DNA of 64,000 nucleotides from the NCBI GenBank assembly GCA_965217775.1, contig CBDCJH010000002.1:3616001-3680000 (forward strand). Direction: 5' to 3'. Positions 5,257-15,058 of the stretch are shown one piece after another (within the stretch, counting starts at the first letter, position 1; every line of letters begins with the position of its first letter). The notes under the pieces are model-generated. The model searched no databases. It had not been told where the DNA came from and saw only the letters and a list, made by a program, of their open reading frames with translations. Origin of the DNA: Acidobacteriota bacterium (GTDB taxonomy: Bacteria > Acidobacteriota > UBA6911 > RPQK01 > JAJDTT01). Both the position numbers and the translations under genes were made by a program.

Positions 5257-6216
5257 TCAGATGTGGATTCCGGGCCAGGCCTCACGAATCCGCTGCTCCA
5301 GGATCGACTTTGACACCGGTTTCTCCAGCCGCAGCCGAGCGGTCGCATTCTTACCCAGAGCGTCGCGGGGGGCCAAGCCCACGATTTCCGAGGAGGAGAC
5401 CCTGGTGCCCAACTCATGGGCGTGGCGGTCCACAGTCTCGAAGAGCCGGACCAGGGAAGTCCTGCGAAAGTCGGTGAGATTGGTGCTGACCTGCCCCTGA
5501 TTCCGGCTGGCGATCCACAACCCCAGCGCCTTGACGCCGGGCAGGCCACCGTCCCGTTCCCGGATCCGGGCGGCCACTTTCCGTGCCACGGTCAGATCGG
5601 GATCTTCGAGAACCATGTTGTAGGCGATCAGATAGTCCCGCGCTCCGACGCAACTGACTCCGACCGTCGGATGGGGGCGAGGGGGTCCGAAGTCGGGTGC
5701 CCAGGCGGGGTTTCGCGCCATCCGCCGTCGCAGCGACACCAGACCTCCCCGCCGGAGGTACGCCAGGGATCTTCGCTCGGGACGGGTCGCCGCCCGCTCG
5801 TAGAGATAGACCGGGAGTTGGATCTCTTCCGCCAGAGCCTTTCCCAGCCGGCGAGCGCTCCGGATGCAGTCGGACATGGTGACGCCGCGGATCGGCACGA
5901 ACGGAATGACGTCCACGGCGCCGATCCGGGGATGGACGCCTCGATGCCGGGAGAGGTCCAGGAGGTCGACGGCCCGGCGGCACAGCGCTGCCGCGGCCTG
6001 CTCAAGGCCCGGAAGAGAGCCCGCCAAGGTGAAGACGGTCCGGTGGTGGTCGACGTCGGCGTCCCAATGGAGCACAGCGGCGGCGGGCGTCTCGGCCGCC
6101 GCCCGGGCCAGTTCGCGGAGAACGGCCGGGTCGCGGCCTTCGCTGACGTTGATCACGCACTCGGCAAGCGAGGATATCGCCGTCCGCTTGTTCTCCCCAC
6201 CTCTCCCCACACTCAC
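5257..6216 (-). CDS. ftcD: Glutamate formimidoyltransferase
   Basis: ECVINVSEGRD, DVDHHRTVFT, HRGVHPRIGAVDVIPFVP, GARDYLIAYN, QVSTNL and SEIVGLAP motifs. Start uncertain; GTG at 6216 follows an AAGGGAG RBS. Confidence 0.9.
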   Translation of the reverse strand: MSVGRGGENKRTAISSLAECVINVSEGRDPAVLRELARAAAETPAAAVLHWDADVDHHRTVFTLAGSLPGLEQAAAALCRRAVDLLDLSRHRGVHPRIGAVDVIPFVPIRGVTMSDCIRSARRLGKALAEEIQLPVYLYERAATRPERRSLAYLRRGGLVSLRRRMARNPAWAPDFGPPRPHPTVGVSCVGARDYLIAYNMVLEDPDLTVARKVAARIRERDGGLPGVKALGLWIASRNQGQVSTNLTDFRRTSLVRLFETVDRHAHELGTRVSSSEIVGLAPRDALGKNATARLRLEKPVSKSILEQRIREAWPGIHI

Positions 6217-6900
6217 CCCCGAATCTCCCTTGCGTTGCCCCCCATGACACAGTCGTTCCTCTGCGACCATCGCGCCCAAGACTCGTCTTGCTCCACACTA
6301 TTGGATATACTCGCCATTCTTGAATCTTCGAACGAATGCTTGGGAGACCAATTCCAACCAGAAACATGCGTCAGGCGTCCCGGGATAATTTCCACCAAAC
6401 AGTCAAAGATTCGGAAGAAAAGTCATGGCGTCCATTACGGGGTCGTCTGGAAATAGCTACGTTCGAACCGGGCGGTGTCTGCCCCCCCGATATCAGAAAT
6501 CTGAATCGTTTCCCCTATAGCAAGACCACCTGCATATTGCACGCGCCGTTATCGAGATCCTGCATAGGATTCGCAGCTGTATCACCGAACAGCTCGGACA
6601 CGCATTCTGACACCGGCCGGGAGACTCCTCCGTGCCAATATCTCGCACTTGCGCCACGTATGATCACCGCTCGCGACGGCACTGATCTTCTACGGCGTCA
6701 TGGTACACTAGAAGTTAGATTACTCCACATTAACCAAACAATACCTCCTACGCTTCGGACCTACCTATCATCGGCCCCAGCAAGCGTGGTCGGCATCTAG
6801 ATTTATTGAATGTCTTAGACTTCATGCTCAGGTGTACGTGTAACATTGTCAACCTCCGGAACATGTCTCGCCAAAAAGAACCTGATCGAGAGCAGACTCA

Positions 6901-9900
6901 TTGGACACATATATGAACTTACCAACACAACCCTCCGTGCCAAGTGGCCTTCCTGCCTATTTGGTTGGACAAGCCGGATTTGATCACCTTTGCACCCTCC
7001 TCGGCATTGAAACCACAGCCCGCAAACAAAGTGTCGTTGGCAGCGAGGCCGTTAGACGTGCTCTGAAACAACTCGGCCCTGCGCCACGAGGCCTTCGCAG
7101 GGCCGGTCGCCTGAAGTGGAGCTTGGTAACCTTCTATAGCTCGCCACGACATCGGCTTAGGAACTGGCAAATTCACGTAGATGCTGACCTCGATTCATCC
7201 AAGTTAATACCATCCCTTGAAGCAAACATTATAAGCAAATTCGACAACGATCTGTATACCGCCGCGATCGATGATGCCGCATTAGTCGACTGCCATAACT
7301 TCTTTGACGCTGAGGAGGAATTGGAGCCATGGAAACAACCCGCCGTCGGTGCCCTGCCGATAATACATAGAGAAATCCTCAACTGGCAGAAGCTCGAACT
7401 CAAACGGCGTGATATCGTGGCGTTAGCCGCCTTCGCCGTCGCGACGATTCTGGAGGACTCACGTTTACTCTTCTGGGCCGCTGAAACAGTTGACGACCTC
7501 GCTACAGAATTCTCGTTCATGGGCGACTCTTTCACCTCCAGAGTCGACGATGTAGAGTCTGATCAAATCTCCAACGTTCCAGCCAGGAAGCAAAATGTCG
7601 TACAAACGTTTCGCAATGCATGCAAGGACTTGGCTGAAATCGCATTGAAACTCCGCTGTGACCCACCGGACTTCCAGTTATTCCAAGATCTGTCACGTCG
7701 CTACGACGCTGTCCGGGACTTAAGAGAACGCGCCATCAGCGAATTGGTAGCAAACCAGGTAACGAATTTTCTGACTGCAATCGAAGAAACCATCCTCTCG
7801 CAAGCCACAGACGCCTCATGGCTGGGGGGAGAAGTAGAGAAGATTCTCGCGTCATGGGCTGGAGAGTATCCCACCAACAATACCGATCTTGAAACCCTGA
7901 AAACCGATGTCGAGAGGGTTAAGCACGACTTGCCAGTCGCCATAAATGCGTGGCATTCGGCGGTCAAGACTACACAGACGATGTTGCGAGATTTGCGTGA
8001 GGTCGAAGTGGAAGGAGGTCTCGCCGGTCAGCTTAGTGCAAACAGGCGTGCCGAAGAACTCTATACGGCCATCGCAGCCGCAAAACGCGGCGAGATCGAT
8101 GCGATTCATCATGCGCTCCAATTAGCGTCGCCTAGTGGCCAAGGCTGCACAATCGCATCTGCCGCTCAGTCAGAGGAGGAACCTCTTAGTAACCAGAATG
8201 CAGAATTGACGGATAACGACAACGGCATCGAAACAACCCAGGAGCACCAAGCGCCCTTCCAGCATCAACCTGAACCACCTCCGGCCAAACCAGACATTGT
8301 CGGAGGCGGCGATGTTCATCCCACTATCGTCCAAGAAACAACCGCGACAGACGCCACCGAATCCCCCACCGCGACCGATCAAGCCACCACTCGCAATATC
8401 TCGGACGAATCCACCCTCCCACAATCTGAGACTGGAGACCAACTTGACTCACCTATCAGCGCGCTCGCTGAACCTGCTTGGCAAGCCATTGGACATCACC
8501 TTCCAGGTATCGCCTACCACATCGTACGCCTGACACCGTTTGAACAGCGAAACCCGACGTTTCCTCCCGCGGATCTCGTCGCAGCGGCCGCTGTGGCTAA
8601 TTCCGTAAATGTACCAAATGATAAAGTCGTAGAGACGCTTACCGAGTACTTGACAGGGATTCATCCTAACGACTTGAAACGGGATAATGAAGACGTCCGC
8701 GATGCTTTACACTTGTTACTTTTGTCAGCAACATTGCGTCCCGCTCTCTTCGCTCCATCAGCTGGCGGACTGTCGCAGTTGCGGCATTTAGAACTATCTT
8801 CTGCTTTTTCCTCAGTGTACGAACTTGCCGAAGTCGTCGCCAATCACGCAGAGTCATTGCAGGCCATAAGCCTTGACGTTGCCCGAGTTCGAGGCGCCCT
8901 TAGTAAGACTGCGTGGCAATACCAAGTTGAACAGCACATGGAAGCTGTTCAACAGTGGCTTCGAAATGCCGGCTCTCAGCGCATCCTCCATGGTCCTACA
9001 CAACGTGTGTGGAAACACTGGCAACGTAAAGATGGCATATTGGGAGAACTCGTCGATCTTCTCTTGAACATCGACCAAACAAATCAAGATAGAGTCCGGG
9101 AGATCCAAGCGAAACTTGAAGACCGACAGGCATACGTTACTCTTGTCAATTACACAGACCGGATTCAACTAGGACGAAAGACGGGCAAAAACATCGAAGG
9201 CCGTGCGTTGACCCAGCTTCGCAAGCACACAGTTCCGATACTAGAGTTCTTGCGGAATTGGCATCGCCTCCTCGCAGCTAAACCAGATCCTACAAATTAC
9301 ATCGACCGCACAATCGTCTCCCTTCGGCACGCTTTGCATATACACGGTCCGGCCGCTATCTTGACACTCAACAATTTCGAGCTCCAACAGCCAATACTGC
9401 CAGTTGCCGCTGCCATTAAATGGGCTCGCATTTCCATTGAAGATTTAGTGGCCTTATTCGACAGCACGGATGCCGTCGATGTCACCGAGCGACAACCGCA
9501 ACTCGTCAACGTCGATCACGATCTCGTGTTCGCCGTTGACGTGGATATAGATCGTGACTATCACTTCGCGGATGGCCAAGACCCTAAACTATGTCTCAGC
9601 TACCTTGCCCAAACAGCCTTGCGTCCCCCGACATTACCAGAAGCGTTTCACGCACGTTCCGGGAGAGGTGATTTAATTGGTGCTAGGCTAGCGTGTGATC
9701 GTATGGACGCAGTCGCCGACTCAGAAGCTGACCGTTGTCGCATTGATCTCGATAACATTATCCAACAAAAGCGTCGCGAATTACGCGCGCTCCGGATGAA
9801 GTTAACCGGCGACATTGAACAGAGCTATTGTCTAGGACAACTCACGCCGGACCAACGCGATGATCTAGCCGCGCGGTGTGTCGCGACCCACGTGGCTACT

Positions 9901-12900
9901 ACACACGCAGACACCGTAACGATCGCAATCAAAGAACTGAGAGCAATTGATGGGTGCCTCCGCGAGTATCGCGATAAGAGCACTGCAACGTTGATCAATA
10001 GCATTCGTGAATTGAAAGGCAAGGCGACGCCCGAGGAAATGTCACTCATTAAGGAGGCCCAAGACACGAATGATCTCGTAACAGTGCGAGAGTACGCGGA
10101 ACGTCTTAAAAATGGAAATCCAATTATAGCCACCGGCTCATCCGAACCGGACAGTTTTGCTGATTTTCTCGACGCCCTGCCCGAGATCAATAATGTACTT
10201 GAAGCATCGAATCGCCCGACACACGGTTCGATTATTGCGGCGGTTAAACGGCGAGAAAGCGTCGCTAGCATTAATTTTGCGTCCATGACCGAACATGAAG
10301 CCACGCAGGCGAGCCATCTCCTAGAGGCGTGGTATCAGATTGCTAGATATCACGAACTGGACAATCGCCTACTCCGCGATCTTTTCTCCCTACTCGGTTT
10401 TGACGTAAAGACAGTCGAGACCGCTGGCGACCGGATAGCAGTAGTCCAAACTGAACCGTTGCAAGACCGAACGCTGTGTCCGATACACATGTTCGGCTCC
10501 GCTGCTAACGGTCAGTACAGGGTCCTACTAAACTGGCGCACACCGGCCCGTGATTCGCTCGTCCAGGCAATCGGCGGACTACGCGGCCAACTTATGGTCC
10601 TCCATTTCGGTCCCCTTGGCGATGATAGAGAGTTCCTTCGCAATTGGTCCTTACAAAACCAACGTCTTTTCCTAGCGATTGACGAAGCTCTGGTACTCTT
10701 TCTTGCCGCAAGACCCAACGGTCGTTTAAAAGCCCTATATGATTCCACACTTCCATACACGGCCGCAGATCCGTTTGTCACGACTTCAAGCCTAGTACCT
10801 CCCGAAATGTTTTATGGTCGCACCTACGAACGGGAGGAAGTGATGAACCAATATGGCGGCTGTTTCGTCTACGGCGGTCGCCAACTTGGGAAGACGGCGC
10901 TTCTCCGTTCCGCAGAAACAGTCTTTCACCACCCAAAGACTAGGCACATCGCTAAATGGATCGATCTCAAAGTTCGTGAAATTGGTTATGCCCGTCAGAC
11001 TGAAGACATTTGGAGCGTTCTTTGGAAAGAGCTAACCGAGGTCGGTATCATTCCTGAAATGGGCTCTCAGCCTAAAGGTACACGCAGCCTCGTTTCGACT
11101 CTCACGCGCGCCATAAAAGAGTGGCTCAAGGACAACAAAGACAGTCGGATCCTATTGCTACTGGACGAAGCGGATGCTTTTCTCGAGGCAGACGCCCACA
11201 CAGATTTCCTTGAGTCTACACGACTCAAGGGATTGATGGATGAAACCGAACGTAGGTTTAAGGTAGTATTTTCTGGTTTACACAATGTATTGCGGACCAC
11301 AGAACGAGCCAACCACCCGCTCGCTCACTTCGGTGATCCCATCTGCATCGGCCCACTTCTCCACAACGGCGAGTGGCAAAGCGCGAGGTCCTTAGCAAGG
11401 GAACCGCTTGCTGCAATCGGTTTTGGATTCGAACATGACAACGTTGTTACGCGTGTACTTGCAAGAACCAACTACTATCCATCGCTTATACAACTATACG
11501 GTGCTGAGTTGGTCCGGTACTTACGTGACTCAACTAGAGTACCTCCCTATCAGGTACGAGCCGACGATGTTAATGCCGTTTTCATGAGGGATGGTCTTCG
11601 CAACTATATTCGAGCCCGTTTTCTTCTCACGCTGCAGCTTGATCCACGCTATGAGGTCATCGCCTATTCAATGGCTCTAGACTTGCAGGAGCACGCGGAG
11701 AACTTGGCAAACGGGTTGTCTTCTGAACACATCGCAGAACAAGCACGATCATGGTGGCCGGATGGCTTCGATATCCCCGACATTGAGTTTGATACGCTAC
11801 TACATGAGATGGCCGGTCTAGGGGTCTTGCGACGCACGATAACAGAGTCCCATGAAGGACAACGTTACACGTTTCGCAACCCCAACGTTTTATTGTTGCT
11901 AGGCACAGCCAGTGATATCGAAAAAGCGCTGTATAAGCCACGAGAATTACCAAAGATATTTGAGGCATCATCGTTTCACGCTAGGTATGTTGGCGACGAT
12001 GATTCACCAAAGCGAGGTCCGCTTACCTACGATCAGGAGGCACGACTTCGAAATCACAGAGGCGTCGCGATACTTACGGGCACTCAAGCAGCAAATATTA
12101 GACAGGTTAGCAAGTTTCTCTCGGGTCGATTAGGGTCGAGTAATTTCAGGGAACTTGAGCCATGCTATGACACAAATAGATTGGAACGCCAGCTCACAAG
12201 TTTACGACCTGATCGACGACAGGGCCTCCATGTCTACATGGTGCCCTTCGAAACTCCGTGGAGTGCGCTATGGCTTGACAGAGCTGCCAAAACTCTTAGG
12301 AGAGTCCAGCGACGCAATCTAATTCGAGTCGTGTTCATTGCTGAACCACAGACTCTATGGAGTGTGTTGGCCGACATCGACGAAAACGCGATTCTTGCGT
12401 ATCTTAAGTCGGACACTAGGTATCTTAAGTCGGACGCTCGACAAACTCGCAAACGGATTGATTGGATAGGTCTTGGACCTTGGGATTTCAGCTTCCTGCG
12501 CCGATGGTGTGATGACCACGATCTTCAGGTCGATCAGGAGGTTATCGATAAGTTGATGGAAATGTCGGGAGGATGGCCGAAGATCTTGGAGCAATACGAC
12601 CGATCTCCTCATAAGCATTCACGAAATAGGTTGGCGGCATTGGATCAATTCATTATCCGCCACCGTTCCGATCTGTTGCGGCATCTGGGAATCGATACGC
12701 CTCTAGTTCAATTCGAGCTTGAAACATTGTTTTCGTACGAGGCATTCACGCCCGATCAGGTGATCCAGCTTGTAAAAATGCAACGAGAGTCACGGGAAGA
12801 ATCTCTTAGCAGCGTTTCGTTGCGGCGACGTTTGATCTGGGCACAACATCTCGGCATTCTGCAGAACCCGACTGGAACCTGGCAGGTCAATCCTCTAGTT

Positions 12901-12927
12901 CAGAAAATGCTAAAGAAAGAGTCTTAA
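6901..12927 (+). CDS. 2008-aa multidomain STAND-type P-loop NTPase (one intact and one degenerate NTPase module)
   Basis: FYGR, Walker A GGRQLGKT (10873-10896), Walker B ILLLLDEAD, TNYYP helical motif and a winged-helix-like LHEMAGLGVL. A second module has a degenerate Walker A (ILTGTQAA), SGGWP and a second wHTH-like segment. Confidence 0.85.
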   Translation: MDTYMNLPTQPSVPSGLPAYLVGQAGFDHLCTLLGIETTARKQSVVGSEAVRRALKQLGPAPRGLRRAGRLKWSLVTFYSSPRHRLRNWQIHVDADLDSSKLIPSLEANIISKFDNDLYTAAIDDAALVDCHNFFDAEEELEPWKQPAVGALPIIHREILNWQKLELKRRDIVALAAFAVATILEDSRLLFWAAETVDDLATEFSFMGDSFTSRVDDVESDQISNVPARKQNVVQTFRNACKDLAEIALKLRCDPPDFQLFQDLSRRYDAVRDLRERAISELVANQVTNFLTAIEETILSQATDASWLGGEVEKILASWAGEYPTNNTDLETLKTDVERVKHDLPVAINAWHSAVKTTQTMLRDLREVEVEGGLAGQLSANRRAEELYTAIAAAKRGEIDAIHHALQLASPSGQGCTIASAAQSEEEPLSNQNAELTDNDNGIETTQEHQAPFQHQPEPPPAKPDIVGGGDVHPTIVQETTATDATESPTATDQATTRNISDESTLPQSETGDQLDSPISALAEPAWQAIGHHLPGIAYHIVRLTPFEQRNPTFPPADLVAAAAVANSVNVPNDKVVETLTEYLTGIHPNDLKRDNEDVRDALHLLLLSATLRPALFAPSAGGLSQLRHLELSSAFSSVYELAEVVANHAESLQAISLDVARVRGALSKTAWQYQVEQHMEAVQQWLRNAGSQRILHGPTQRVWKHWQRKDGILGELVDLLLNIDQTNQDRVREIQAKLEDRQAYVTLVNYTDRIQLGRKTGKNIEGRALTQLRKHTVPILEFLRNWHRLLAAKPDPTNYIDRTIVSLRHALHIHGPAAILTLNNFELQQPILPVAAAIKWARISIEDLVALFDSTDAVDVTERQPQLVNVDHDLVFAVDVDIDRDYHFADGQDPKLCLSYLAQTALRPPTLPEAFHARSGRGDLIGARLACDRMDAVADSEADRCRIDLDNIIQQKRRELRALRMKLTGDIEQSYCLGQLTPDQRDDLAARCVATHVATTHADTVTIAIKELRAIDGCLREYRDKSTATLINSIRELKGKATPEEMSLIKEAQDTNDLVTVREYAERLKNGNPIIATGSSEPDSFADFLDALPEINNVLEASNRPTHGSIIAAVKRRESVASINFASMTEHEATQASHLLEAWYQIARYHELDNRLLRDLFSLLGFDVKTVETAGDRIAVVQTEPLQDRTLCPIHMFGSAANGQYRVLLNWRTPARDSLVQAIGGLRGQLMVLHFGPLGDDREFLRNWSLQNQRLFLAIDEALVLFLAARPNGRLKALYDSTLPYTAADPFVTTSSLVPPEMFYGRTYEREEVMNQYGGCFVYGGRQLGKTALLRSAETVFHHPKTRHIAKWIDLKVREIGYARQTEDIWSVLWKELTEVGIIPEMGSQPKGTRSLVSTLTRAIKEWLKDNKDSRILLLLDEADAFLEADAHTDFLESTRLKGLMDETERRFKVVFSGLHNVLRTTERANHPLAHFGDPICIGPLLHNGEWQSARSLAREPLAAIGFGFEHDNVVTRVLARTNYYPSLIQLYGAELVRYLRDSTRVPPYQVRADDVNAVFMRDGLRNYIRARFLLTLQLDPRYEVIAYSMALDLQEHAENLANGLSSEHIAEQARSWWPDGFDIPDIEFDTLLHEMAGLGVLRRTITESHEGQRYTFRNPNVLLLLGTASDIEKALYKPRELPKIFEASSFHARYVGDDDSPKRGPLTYDQEARLRNHRGVAILTGTQAANIRQVSKFLSGRLGSSNFRELEPCYDTNRLERQLTSLRPDRRQGLHVYMVPFETPWSALWLDRAAKTLRRVQRRNLIRVVFIAEPQTLWSVLADIDENAILAYLKSDTRYLKSDARQTRKRIDWIGLGPWDFSFLRRWCDDHDLQVDQEVIDKLMEMSGGWPKILEQYDRSPHKHSRNRLAALDQFIIRHRSDLLRHLGIDTPLVQFELETLFSYEAFTPDQVIQLVKMQRESREESLSSVSLRRRLIWAQHLGILQNPTGTWQVNPLVQKMLKKES
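12399..12435 (+). repeat. In-frame 21-bp-period tandem duplication
   Basis: GTATCTTAAGTCGGAC at 12399 and 12420, encoding YLKSDTR-YLKSDAR. Confidence 0.9.
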
Positions 12928-12932
12928 CTAAA

Positions 12933-14048
12933 ATGAGGCTATGGGATTTGCCTGGGGCCGTACGGTTTGTTGATGCGATACAGCAGTCATTACGTGCTGG
13001 TGTGAATGTGGTTGCTCGGTTTCCCAGGACGGTTCCATCAGGATTCCGGGACACAGTTTCATTGGGTCTAACTCAGTTACTTGCTGTCGGAAGTATCGAG
13101 TGCGGACCCTCGCCGTTCGAACAGCTCTGTGGGAAGTTTTCTCCCGGTAGATTTTTTCAAGAGGACGACCTGCAGGAGCTGTGCGAGGATGATGGCTTTC
13201 AGGGACGTCTTATTTGGCTGGAGCGCCTCGACGAACGAACGTGGCCCAACTGGCGGACCTTCTTGACACGATATGCACAAGCAAGTCGGAACGTTTCTGC
13301 TTTTGGACGAACGTTATTTATGGCGACGCTTGACGGGGCACCGCCTGGGGATCCACTGGACGCTGACGTCACAATCGTGACGCATGATTGGTCTAATGTC
13401 ATAGACGAAATTGACCTTCTGTTTCTGGCCAATGATCGGTTGTTGCCGACGAAGTCCGATCCGGTTCAACGGCTACTACTCTCTACTACCGTGGCGAGGG
13501 TGGCGTCTTGGGACTTCGAGACGGCGGGACAGATGCTCGACGGCGGGACAGAAATTATTCTCGATCCCTTGGAGATGTTGAGGTCAATTGCAATTTGCAA
13601 GGGCTGGACAACTGCCACACCAGTTGCTTGGGAATTGGGAACTGCTTCGGGTAGTGGGGTTGTCCACCCAGCCCTTGCTGCTCTCGAAAACCCAGCAAGG
13701 GAGATCCGCCGACGGCTGTGGAGCGCTCAGGCGTCCGTACTGTTTCCACTCATCGAGTCTCGACGGGACGAGATCGTACGGCGGAATCTGTATGTAATTC
13801 GACGATACCTGCACAACTGCGGTGACGATGCGACAGATCCTCGGGACATGGAGATCGGTGACCTGTATTCCATGTTTCGGCGCGCAAATGGAAGCTGGCG
13901 ACTCCGAAAAAGCGTCAAGAGTCTCCGCAATGCCCGTAATGCACTTGCCCACCTAGATCCGTTACCGGCACAACAAGCCCTTGAACTGGCGCGAGTCAAT
14001 CGTGGCTATAATTCTAGAATGGGCAGGACCCATTTTACGATAAACTAG
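12933..14048 (+). CDS. 371-aa protein with a C-terminal HEPN-like RNase motif and a possible inactive NTPase-like N-terminus
   Basis: C-terminal DMEIGDL...LRNARNALAHL (R-x4-H at 13935-13952); starts 5 nt after the NTPase stop. Confidence 0.7.
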   Translation: MRLWDLPGAVRFVDAIQQSLRAGVNVVARFPRTVPSGFRDTVSLGLTQLLAVGSIECGPSPFEQLCGKFSPGRFFQEDDLQELCEDDGFQGRLIWLERLDERTWPNWRTFLTRYAQASRNVSAFGRTLFMATLDGAPPGDPLDADVTIVTHDWSNVIDEIDLLFLANDRLLPTKSDPVQRLLLSTTVARVASWDFETAGQMLDGGTEIILDPLEMLRSIAICKGWTTATPVAWELGTASGSGVVHPALAALENPAREIRRRLWSAQASVLFPLIESRRDEIVRRNLYVIRRYLHNCGDDATDPRDMEIGDLYSMFRRANGSWRLRKSVKSLRNARNALAHLDPLPAQQALELARVNRGYNSRMGRTHFTIN

Positions 14049-14155
14049 TTATCAGCATGATTCCATGCTCGGCCAGGGGCGAGCCTTTACGCGAAATCGC
14101 GACAGTTTCAAGGCCGAGAGGATTAGGATTGGACTAATGAGAACAGCCCGCTGAC

Positions 14156-15058
14156 TCAGTTGCGCCTACTGTTTCGCTCGATCCCCTCTTCTTGCTTTAC
14201 TCGTTTCGTTCTCATTCCCGAGTTCTCTCCCTGCAGGATCACCCGGGCTACCGTAAGGATCAGGATTCGACCGGCTTTGCCGTCCCGCTTGAGGACCTTT
14301 GAGGTCTCGTGGGAGGTGGCGCCCGTGGTGAGGATGTCGTCTACCAGGACCAGATCCTCTCCCGAGATTCGGCGTGCCTGCCGGAGCCGGAAGGCGTTGC
14401 GGACGTTCCTCCTTCGAGCCTTCAGGTCGAGTCCGAACTGGGGCAGAGTCGGACGCGACCTGCAAAGGCCCGGGAACACCGGAAGGTTCAGTCTTCGGCC
14501 CAGGGTTCGAGTCAGGAGGAGCGTCTGGTCGAATCCCCGTTTCCTCCGGCGCCGCGGATGGGAAGGGACCGGGACCAGCCAGGAAGGTGAAAAGGGATCG
14601 GGCCGCGCCCGGTAGGCTTCCTCCAGCAGGGACGCCAGAGGATGCGCCAGGCGGCGGTGGCCGGAGAATTTGAAGCGATGGATCAACAGTCTCAGGGTTC
14701 CGGCGTACGGTCCCCAGGCCCGAGTCGAGTGATGGAAGGGTCGTGTCCCCCGGCAGGACGCGCAGGGCTCCGGAGCCCCTGGATCTTTCTCCCGATCCGG
14801 AACCGGCAAATCACCGGCCGGCGCAGGCCCGCCACAAATCGGGCAGAGAGGATCCTGGAACCTGGGCAGTTGCAGGAAGCATTCGGAACAAAGGGGACTG
14901 GCATCCGGATTGGCGACCCAGCGGCCGCACAGGACGCAGCTTTGGGGAAAAAAGAGGACTTGGAGCCCCTGGAAAAGGCGCTTCCACAGAGTGATCCCCG
15001 GAACGGAAGACACACTGAACGAAACGTCCGATCCGGAAAACCTGCGAAGAGAATCCAA
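14156..15058 (-). CDS. comF: ComF family protein (double zinc ribbon plus PRTase domain)
   Basis: FPQSCVLCG, CSEC, CPICG, CASC, VPVP.H..R...RGFDQ and LVDDILTTGAT motifs. Confidence 0.9.
   Translation of the reverse strand: MDSLRRFSGSDVSFSVSSVPGITLWKRLFQGLQVLFFPQSCVLCGRWVANPDASPLCSECFLQLPRFQDPLCPICGGPAPAGDLPVPDREKDPGAPEPCASCRGTRPFHHSTRAWGPYAGTLRLLIHRFKFSGHRRLAHPLASLLEEAYRARPDPFSPSWLVPVPSHPRRRRKRGFDQTLLLTRTLGRRLNLPVFPGLCRSRPTLPQFGLDLKARRRNVRNAFRLRQARRISGEDLVLVDDILTTGATSHETSKVLKRDGKAGRILILTVARVILQGENSGMRTKRVKQEEGIERNSRRN

Follow-up and report, generated by a model that had tools for sequence, protein, structure and literature searches.

Here we describe a two-gene cassette within a 64,000-nucleotide stretch of an Acidobacteriota genome (assembly GCA_965217775.1, contig CBDCJH010000002.1, positions 3,616,001 to 3,680,000 of the forward strand), which is referred to throughout as the window. 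The first gene, A, encodes a giant P-loop nucleoside triphosphatase (NTPase), and the second, B, a smaller protein that likely ends in a HEPN-like domain. With modest confidence, we read the cassette as a mobile two-component conflict system, directed against phages or plasmids, in which A would be an NTPase switch and B a HEPN effector, and which would represent a large family that has so far gone unnamed. This reading is built on the linkage of the two genes, the position of the cassette at a site that is empty in related genomes, the conservation of motifs in both proteins, the exchange of whole N-terminal heads on a conserved core of A, and the defence genes found beside some of the relatives. 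The domain calls for A and B are drawn from sequence profiles.

The window had previously been given a first-pass annotation from its nucleotide sequence. The length of 2008 amino acids (aa) that it gave for A, the 5-nt interval that it gave between A and B, and the motifs GGRQLGKT, LLLLDEAD and NYYP in A and RNALAH in B were all found where it had placed them; its assignments of domains and its expectations about genomic context fared unevenly and are taken up below with the results that bear on them.

Linkage of genes A and B

Searches with B returned 174 homologs at E<=1e-3, none of them named or carrying a Pfam domain, with identities of 44-84% among the 120 matches listed. A genome scan with an alignment of B located 31 loci in Acidobacteriota, Gammaproteobacteria, Rhodothermales, Binatia, Gemmatimonadetes and Opitutales, together with one distant locus in Bradyrhizobium. 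When these loci were searched by tblastn with A, 29 of the 31 gave a match, and in 28 of them (L001 to L028) the match ended 0-80 nt before B. The upstream open reading frame (ORF) is uninterrupted in 19 of these 28 loci (1,769-2,094 aa), split in four, and reduced in the remaining five to the C-terminal ~150-300 residues alone. The two genes are also tightly spaced: in the window B starts 5 nt past the stop codon of A on the same strand, and in 20 loci the upstream ORF overlaps the start codon of B by 4 nt. The reverse search, with a profile of the A core, matched five of 201 genomes in a sample of the phylum, and B lay directly downstream in all five. Co-occurrence of A and B homologs, which the first-pass annotation had put forward as a check on the pair, is thus borne out from either gene.

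No third conserved gene was detected, in that five proteins from the flanks of the cassette in the window were without a match in the 31 loci. Among the five is the product of a 154-aa ORF at 6336-6800, in the leader upstream of A, which was considered as a possible gene and set aside as probably spurious, having neither a Pfam match nor a tblastn match in those loci.

A short form, consisting of the C-terminal part of A followed by B, was considered as a general architecture and rejected, because the short forms trace to about three events: L022 runs into the end of its contig, L004 lies behind a transposase of the IS4/5 family, L025 is decayed, and the sister loci L005 and L007 represent a single event. 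In L004, the DDE transposase (7650-8300) sits just upstream of a truncated A of 353 aa, B is intact, and a full-length copy (L003) is found ~70 kb away on the same contig. The persistence of an intact B beside a truncated A in L004, L005 and L007 argues that B is not freely toxic, and fits an effector that requires activation better than it fits a free toxin.

A mobile segment with defined empty sites

The G+C content of the window is 0.49-0.56 over positions 6001-13500, as against 0.62-0.68 upstream and 0.60-0.64 downstream, and in 12 of 17 related loci the G+C content lies more than 2 points below that of the flanks. The upstream flank carries genes for an FAA hydrolase and a DUF3830 protein, and the downstream flank genes for a DZR_2 (double-zinc-ribbon) protein, RsfS, Obg and TrkH/TrkA, in agreement with the earlier description of a lower-G+C two-gene cassette amid housekeeping genes. 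In all five of the congeners checked (G001, G002, G004, G005 and G006) these flanks adjoin, 206-683 bp apart, and so form an empty site; the homology of the window to the congeners stops at 6168-6185 and restarts at 14218-14241. Because the flanks adjoin in five congeners and homology breaks at both edges, the ~8.05 kb between 6171 and 14226 is extra sequence in the window. Two of these congeners, G005 and G006, carry the cassette at other places in their genomes despite the empty site at this one. The genome from which the window comes holds a single copy of the cassette, and the window offers a clean case of a lone insertion whose empty sites are well defined.

Neither terminal direct or inverted repeats, nor a target-site duplication, nor an integrase was found at the ends of the insertion. 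The window contains no tRNA gene, and scans of the region for promoters and terminators gave sites of either kind no more often than in shuffled sequences.

The distribution of the cassette is patchy. Among 41 related genomes B is present in four, namely the source genome and three of eight congeners, and it is absent from all 32 genomes outside the genus. On a wider scale the family spans Acidobacteriota, Gamma- and Alphaproteobacteria, Rhodothermota, Gemmatimonadota, Binatia, Verrucomicrobiota, Cyanobacteriota and Actinomycetota. A search of 50,697 phage records was negative, as was a search of IMG/VR with B.

The P-loop module and other conserved parts of protein A

A public protein identical to A is called at 2004 aa, which implies that translation begins at the ATG at 6913. 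The NTPase module opens with the sequence FYGRTYERE (residues 1304-1312; FYGRxxE at 1304-1310), in which F1304, G1306, R1307 and E1310 are invariant. A motif of the hhGRExE type just before the P-loop marks the STAND NTPases, and ORC/Cdc6 proteins have the same motif. Further along are the Walker A motif GGRQLGKT (residues 1325-1332, bases 10873-10896), the Walker B motif LLLLDEAD (residues 1418-1425, bases 11152-11175) and TNYYP (residues 1523-1527). FYGRxxE, GGRQLGKT, LLLLDEAD, GLHNVLR and TNYYP are invariant in all 19 of the A homologs aligned, and in a larger set of 250 family members all have Walker B and 248 have Walker A. Since the Walker motifs are retained almost universally, the ATPase of A is almost certainly active. 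The elements after the NTPase, comprising GPL..., TNYYP and an end resembling a winged helix-turn-helix (wHTH), were read from alignment patterns alone.

The first-pass annotation had called this module an intact STAND-like NTPase. The P-loop is indeed intact and conserved to the extent just given, but the STAND assignment draws on sub-threshold Pfam matches. In A itself, AAA_16 scored 21.2 bits against a cut-off of 32.6, with the match starting at FYGR and at profile position 2, and ATPase_2 scored 15.6 bits against a cut-off of 33.2. Among the 19 full-length homologs, sub-threshold matches were obtained to AAA_16 in 19, AAA_22 in 16, ATPase_2 in 11, nSTAND6 in four (best E 0.0013) and NB-ARC in two. 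Some relatives carry precomputed AAA_22 and AAA_16 assignments, both of which are general P-loop models.

Ahead of the P-loop, residues 1151-1300 are among the best conserved parts of A, with G1166, F1167, C1193, G1199, S1200, Y1206, H1235, R1243, R1247, D1261 and E1262 invariant. Identity to the nearest homolog is 72% in the head, 80% in the mid region, 87% in residues 1151-1300, 91% in the NTPase module and 82% in the C-terminal module; among proteins with the head type of the window, the NTPase changes least, and divergence is about equal in the head, the mid region and the C-terminal module. Pfam scans of A and the 19 homologs detected no nuclease family, the mid region (521-1150) had no match in Pfam or the PDB, and PDB sequence and profile searches with A and with its core gave nothing meaningful. 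In STAND NTPases, helical-arm and winged-helix domains come after the NTPase and are followed by a long sensor of TPR, WD40 or LRR repeats. A repeat search found no internal repeats in A, and a profile comparison of the head with the mid region gave no internal homology.

The C-terminal module of protein A

Residues 1691-2008 present, in order, GGVxVIxG, VxLVP, RVVFxAxP, LGPW..FLRRW, SGGWP and a C-terminal wHTH-like LRRRLxW..LGLL. In the alignment, this order resembles that of a STAND core stripped of its Walker motifs, and the first-pass annotation had accordingly placed a second, degenerate STAND module at ~1690-2008. That identification was not borne out by profile comparison: hhalign of the C-terminal module against the NTPase module returned a probability of 0.3% and an E value of 0.24, the order of the motifs being the only similarity, and no Pfam match fell within residues 1691-2008 in A or the 19 homologs. 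A second STAND module in A is thus a pattern-level suggestion.

Upstream of B, the short forms L005 and L007 retain just this module. In each of them (L005:8985-11074 and L007:9036-11089) an open frame of ~320-340 aa, covering positions 16-307 of the 308 in the hidden Markov model (HMM), is followed by an intact B, and no NTPase lies within 3 kb upstream; the short pair may be functional or may be a remnant that the two loci share. L004 and L025 keep the module in part (from HMM positions 156 and 94, respectively), with B still open in L004.

The window also shows, at 12399-12438, an in-frame 21-nt tandem duplication (19/19 and 18/19 bases) that encodes YLKSDTR/YLKSDAR; it sits in a variable insertion of the C-terminal module that is absent from the homologs.

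Protein B and its probable HEPN-like domain

RNALAH occupies residues 335-340 of B, and in 24 sequences R335, N336, L338, A339 and H340 do not vary. Of 120 B homologs, 119 show the pattern R[NHDQ]x[LIVM][AS]H, and the exception still has Rx4H. A Pfam scan of 21 B proteins, limited to their final 140 residues, gave sub-threshold matches to HEPN_Swt1 in 11 pieces (best E 0.0013), DUF4145 in six, HEPN_RiboL-PSP in one and Abi_2 in one (E 0.1). The piece from the window itself matched HEPN_Swt1 with an E value of 0.1 and 13.3 bits against a cut-off of 27.5, over profile positions 75-101 and spanning the Rx4H. DUF4145 and Swt1/Abi2 are classed as HEPN families in PMC3710099. What remains of the earlier description of B as HEPN-like is therefore an invariant Rx4H and a set of weak matches that converge on HEPN, but none of them rises above its threshold. 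We regard the C-terminal domain of B as likely to be HEPN-like.

Full-length B gave no Pfam match, PDB searches with B by sequence and by profile yielded nothing meaningful, and hhalign found no similarity between its N-terminal domain and the modules of A. The sole match of the N-terminal domain is a weak alignment of residues 2-97 (12933-13220; LWDLPGxxRF...VVVRFPG) to the part of Rab32 that runs from switch II to beta-4, with E values of 0.019-0.083 over four PDB sequences. This may reflect an NTPase-like fold without a P-loop, or chance; an identity with Rab32 was set aside, as the match is too weak (E 0.019).

Exchangeable heads on a conserved core

A feature that the first-pass annotation had overlooked is that, in profile comparisons, A divides into a swappable head of ~430 residues and a conserved core of ~1,500 residues. 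The family to which this core belongs is large: of 1.84 billion representative clusters, 4,942 were matched at E<=1e-3 by a profile of A residues 1150-2008, and 2,389 at E<=1e-30. Within the best 150 family representatives, the head type of the window was found in 44, and at least three unrelated helical head types are present, with a low-complexity linker after every head. The heads of full-length members cluster into groups of 53 (the window type), 39 and 14, plus small groups, and no profile similarity was found between head types. The possibility that the window's head is a decoy of a protein of the same genome was rejected, since it has no paralog in the genome and no standalone homolog of 234-746 aa.

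The boundary between head and core is also apparent in relatives whose heads differ. Alignments by hhalign of the core (~520-2008) to four such proteins begin at A residues 515-534, with E values from 1.8e-77 to 7e-188; the four are a 3,065-aa protein from a Bradyrhizobium metagenome-assembled genome (MAG) and plasmid-encoded proteins of Microvirga (3,394 aa), Brasilonema (2,289 aa) and Salinibacter (1,927 aa). The heads of the Bradyrhizobium (L031:35-10885) and Microvirga (L035:1-14616, NZ_CP069357.1) proteins contain pPIWI_RE_X, MID and RNaseH_pPIWI_RE domains. The Brasilonema octagenarum protein, encoded on plasmid pBOCT2 (CP030123.1; L033:5292-12161), has a complete sigma-70 factor as its head, with regions 1.2, 2, 3 and 4; sigma-70 occupies residues 71-368 and the A core residues 786-2287. 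This fusion and its partner gene recur as a pair on two metagenome contigs (L056 and L057) at 91% and 95% identity, and as the two contigs give equal identity values they may be one sequence filed twice. The Salinibacter head is coiled-coil-like. In their source records the relatives are named "hypothetical protein", "ATP-binding protein", "AAA family ATPase" or "RNaseH domain-containing protein", the last of these in seven of the 25 plasmid records listed.

The partner gene varies along with the head. A B-like protein follows in Salinibacter (probability 99.9%), Thiodictyon and Methylocystis, and in Bradyrhizobium and Microvirga the B-like protein has an added P-loop of the AAA_33 kinase type. 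In Agrobacterium the gene after the A relative encodes a 529-aa protein with a weak AAA_33 match, and in Brasilonema an HKD(PLD)+Snf2 helicase stands in place of B.

Genomic context of the relatives

Neighbours of the MAG loci were called by a crude scan that took the greedy longest ORFs of 100-900 aa, two upstream and three downstream. The resulting 119 ORFs from 28 MAG loci include up to four matches to any one methyltransferase model, three to rve, two to PDC-S01 and one each to CTD7 (ABC-3C), EcoEI_R_C and a phage integrase domain, the remainder being metabolic. There was no recurrent neighbour family among them, and no linked methyltransferase, PglZ or helicase.

Seven of 28 plasmid records were inspected for context, and defence neighbours are clear in four of the seven. 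On the Methylocystis plasmid the genes directly downstream are DruH (E 0) and a DEAD helicase; on the Agrobacterium plasmid a WYL regulator lies on the upstream side, E1-E2/JAB and patatin genes lie on the downstream side, and RelBE and PIN genes are nearby; the Salinibacter plasmid has a PDC-S37/Hhe-like gene and a transposase; the Microvirga plasmid has PprDinG directly upstream (E 1e-149); and the Thiodictyon plasmid has integrase and recombinase genes. Several relatives adjoin Druantia, CBASS-like, Hhe-like or PprDinG genes. As to a location in defence islands, which had been suggested as a check on the cassette, defence neighbours are clear for these four plasmid relatives, are sporadic in the largely metabolic surroundings of the 28 MAG loci, and are not seen in the window, with its housekeeping neighbours.

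Proposed function and alternative explanations

In the mechanism that we propose, A would act as an NTP-driven switch. Its interchangeable N-terminal head would be the input part, and residues ~520-2008 the transducer, in which the mid region and the conserved domain would be joined to an active P-loop module of STAND/ORC-Cdc6 type and, after it, to a C-terminal module that lacks Walker motifs. B would be translated in coupling with A, dock on it and supply the output through a HEPN-type RNase domain. A signal received at the head would change the nucleotide state and assembly of A, assembly would join the HEPN domains of B into an active nuclease, and the resulting RNA cleavage would shut down the infected cell or the invader. 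HEPN nucleases require a dimer for activity. The head is taken as the input because this is the position that is exchanged, and because relatives hold there either pPIWI-RE, which binds guide and target, or sigma-70, which binds RNA polymerase and promoters. It is from the motifs alone that we infer RNase activity and a part in abortive infection.

Several points weigh against this proposal. The domain calls lie below Pfam thresholds and are provisional: membership of A in the STAND class is not established, all of the curated models being sub-threshold, and the HEPN assignment of B is wholly sub-threshold (E 0.1 for the window), with PDB profile searches by B and by its C-terminal domain recovering no HEPN chain. 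As to the trigger, the window's head has no recognisable fold or family and no standalone homolog of 234-746 aa, and the assignment of sensing to one end of A and signalling to the other comes from the pPIWI-RE and sigma-70 fusions alone. Retention of the C-terminal module in L005 and L007 could mean that this module restrains B. Finally, the flanks of the cassette in the window are housekeeping genes and not a defence island, and defence or mobile genes next to the MAG loci are sporadic, being few among mostly metabolic neighbours and counted without an enrichment baseline.

A more ambitious version of the conflict-system proposal, to which we assign a low probability, would treat the A core plus B as a transducer-executioner chassis with plug-in inputs. 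Among these, a complete sigma-70 would be an integrated copy of a host protein under phage attack and would serve as a decoy comparable to the integrated domains of plant NLR proteins, and a pPIWI-RE module programmed by guides would couple an Argonaute to an abortive response. Three STAND-like modules, one active (the A NTPase) and two lacking Walker motifs (the A C-terminal module and the B N-terminal domain), would then be arranged in an (A-B)2 complex that mimics a six-module AAA+ ring and closes a HEPN dimer. Were this so, the family would constitute a new and very widespread branch of prokaryotic innate immunity, with ~5,000 representative clusters.

It is improbable, in our judgement, that A is itself the main effector, namely a nucleic-acid-targeting, restriction-like ATPase in which residues 1151-1300, with their invariant H, R, R and D-E, would form a nuclease or other enzyme and B would be an auxiliary suicide module. 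Such a role would suit the high conservation of residues 1151-1300, the fusion of distant relatives to a pPIWI-RE nuclease module behind a DinG helicase, and the pairing in Brasilonema with an HKD+Snf2 helicase-nuclease in place of B, as well as the use of HEPN as a last-resort effector on ORC/STAND-like ATPases that is described in PMC12839542. However, no nuclease family is detected in A, and no methyltransferase or other self-marking gene is linked to the cassette. Moreover, B is not optional in the subfamily of the window, because it is kept in all five of the genomes found via A and its Rx4H is nearly invariant.

There is a slim chance that the cassette is a toxin-antitoxin or addiction module, in which the HEPN toxin B would be held in check by the C-terminal module of A and the cassette would maintain itself. 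Tight coupling of the genes and mobility of the cassette are compatible with this, and HEPN toxins are known in toxin-antitoxin pairs (PMC3710099). L005 and L007, moreover, keep exactly the C-terminal module and an intact B, as expected if the module neutralises B; but the short forms amount to only about three events, and L004 and L025 hold the module in part, with B open in L004. A protein of 2,000 residues with a conserved active P-loop and with sigma-70 or pPIWI-RE heads also exceeds what neutralisation would need.

An accessory regulator or RNA-processing complex (in transcription or RNA turnover, for example) that happens to lie on a mobile segment and has no role in conflict would accommodate the relative with a full sigma-70 head, the ribosome- and translation-related neighbours RsfS and Obg, and the lack of matches in PADLOC and in the phage and viral collections, but we think it very doubtful, because the cassette is an insertion unrelated to those neighbours, is present in four of 41 relatives, has relatives that adjoin DruH, E1-E2/JAB, Hhe-like and PprDinG genes, and belongs to a family that swaps heads, as is typical of conflict systems.

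If the defence-switch interpretation is correct, a family of thousands of clusters has so far been without a name. The combination of a head, a 1,500-residue core and a separate HEPN partner would be a natural experiment in the rewiring of one NTPase switch to different inputs. Through the pPIWI-RE fusions, an Argonaute-like family that is still poorly understood would in that case be tied to an ATPase and a HEPN output, and the sigma-70 fusion would suggest that bacteria, too, use integrated decoys, an idea that can be tested.

Comparison with known systems

The pair fails every curated-model test that was run in Pfam and PADLOC. PADLOC-DB v2.0.0 (2023), a source against which the novelty of the pair was to be checked, contains no family that matches A or B at E<=1, and NCBIfam gave no match for either protein. 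Literature searches covering HEPN and STAND proteins, pPIWI-RE and integrated decoys yielded no account of the A-B pair, although the supplements of 10.64898/2026.01.04.697583 and PMC12839542 may list the family; prior naming is possible, and defence catalogues newer than PADLOC-DB v2 may include it.

Avs (AVAST) proteins and bacterial NACHT proteins resemble A in being large single chains organised around a P-loop NTPase of the STAND/AAA_16 kind, and they resemble the cassette in their variable terminal domains, patchy spread and horizontal mobility, as well as in the signal-dependent activation of a nuclease effector that we propose for A-B. Unlike in Avs, the putative effector of the cassette is on a separate protein, and the P-loop of A comes after ~630 conserved residues and an additional conserved domain. 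A also differs from Avs in that its variable part is N-terminal and in that a short Walker-less tail, and no long repeat sensor, follows the NTPase.

In PrrC and RloC, a HEPN RNase is silenced by an NTPase-containing regulator and released on infection. The gating of a HEPN RNase by an NTPase would thus be common to these systems and A-B. Abi2/AbiD/AbiF are likewise HEPN proteins (PMC3710099). PrrC/RloC and AbiD/AbiF differ from the cassette in having the NTPase and HEPN parts on one chain of a few hundred residues, and show no sequence match to A-B beyond Abi_2 in one of 21 pieces at E 0.1.

PMC12839542 describes BREX BrxC/BrxB as an ORC/STAND-like ATPase with an inactive STAND-like BrxB, and the HEPN endoRNase of DUF499 (Hma-type) systems as a supposed suicide or last-resort effector on an ORC/STAND-like ATPase. 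To that extent, A-B would be similar in combining an ORC/STAND-like ATPase with an inactive STAND-like component and HEPN. However, neither A nor B matches a DUF499 or Brx model; no methyltransferase, PglZ or helicase is linked among the neighbours of the 28 MAG loci; and the putative HEPN domain of A-B belongs to a protein of its own, of 371 aa, whereas in DUF499 systems HEPN forms the N-terminus of the ATPase.

The pPIWI-RE systems, which comprise a restriction endonuclease, DinG and pPIWI-RE and are called "Ppr" in PADLOC, overlap with the family in that distant relatives of A carry pPIWI-RE domains N-terminally and are encoded between a PprDinG gene upstream and a gene for a B-like protein downstream; A of the window, unlike these, has no PIWI module in Pfam. 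The 2013 description of pPIWI-RE (PMC3702460), in its accessible portion, mentions neither a fusion to a P-loop protein nor a HEPN partner.

Feature coordinates and minor observations

Table 1. Features of the cassette, in window coordinates
Feature	Position	Strand	Remarks
Inserted segment, ~8.05 kb	6171..14226		Limits lie where the match to five congeners breaks off
Non-coding leader of the insertion	6171..6900	+	~730 nt, upstream of gene A
Gene A	6901..12927	+	2008 aa (TTG start at 6901) or 2004 aa (ATG start at 6913)
A residues 1-430, "type-1" N-terminal head	6901..8190	+	Variable; matches no known family
A residues 431-520, low-complexity acidic/polar linker	8191..8460	+	Least conserved part, with most insertions, in the 19-sequence alignment
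A residues 521-1150, conserved mid region	8461..10350	+	Family-wide core starts here
A residues 1151-1300, conserved domain before the P-loop	10351..10800	+	Invariant residues in the alignment
A residues 1301-1690, P-loop NTPase module	10801..11970	+	FYGRxxE, Walker A/B, GLHNVLR, TNYYP, wHTH-like end
A residues 1691-2008, C-terminal module	11971..12924	+	STAND-like motif order, without Walker motifs
Gene B	12933..14048	+	371 aa
B residues 1-235, conserved N-terminal domain	12933..13637	+	No known family
B residues ~250-360, HEPN-like domain	13680..14012	+	RNALAH at 13935-13952

In the loci with a split A (L009, L015, L026 and L027), frameshifts or insertions divide A into two to four ORFs, and B is open or cut by a contig end; the splitting could reflect decay or assembly errors.

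Two of the loci found with B, L029 and L030, hold remnants of the gene. Judged by the translations, the gene beside the remnant in L029 (10591-13452) encodes 953 aa with a GxGKS P-loop and an extended coiled-coil region, and beside that in L030 (8971-10429, minus strand) a nucleotidyltransferase-like ORF adjoins a small helical ORF. The genes beside these remnants are likely to be other conflict genes.

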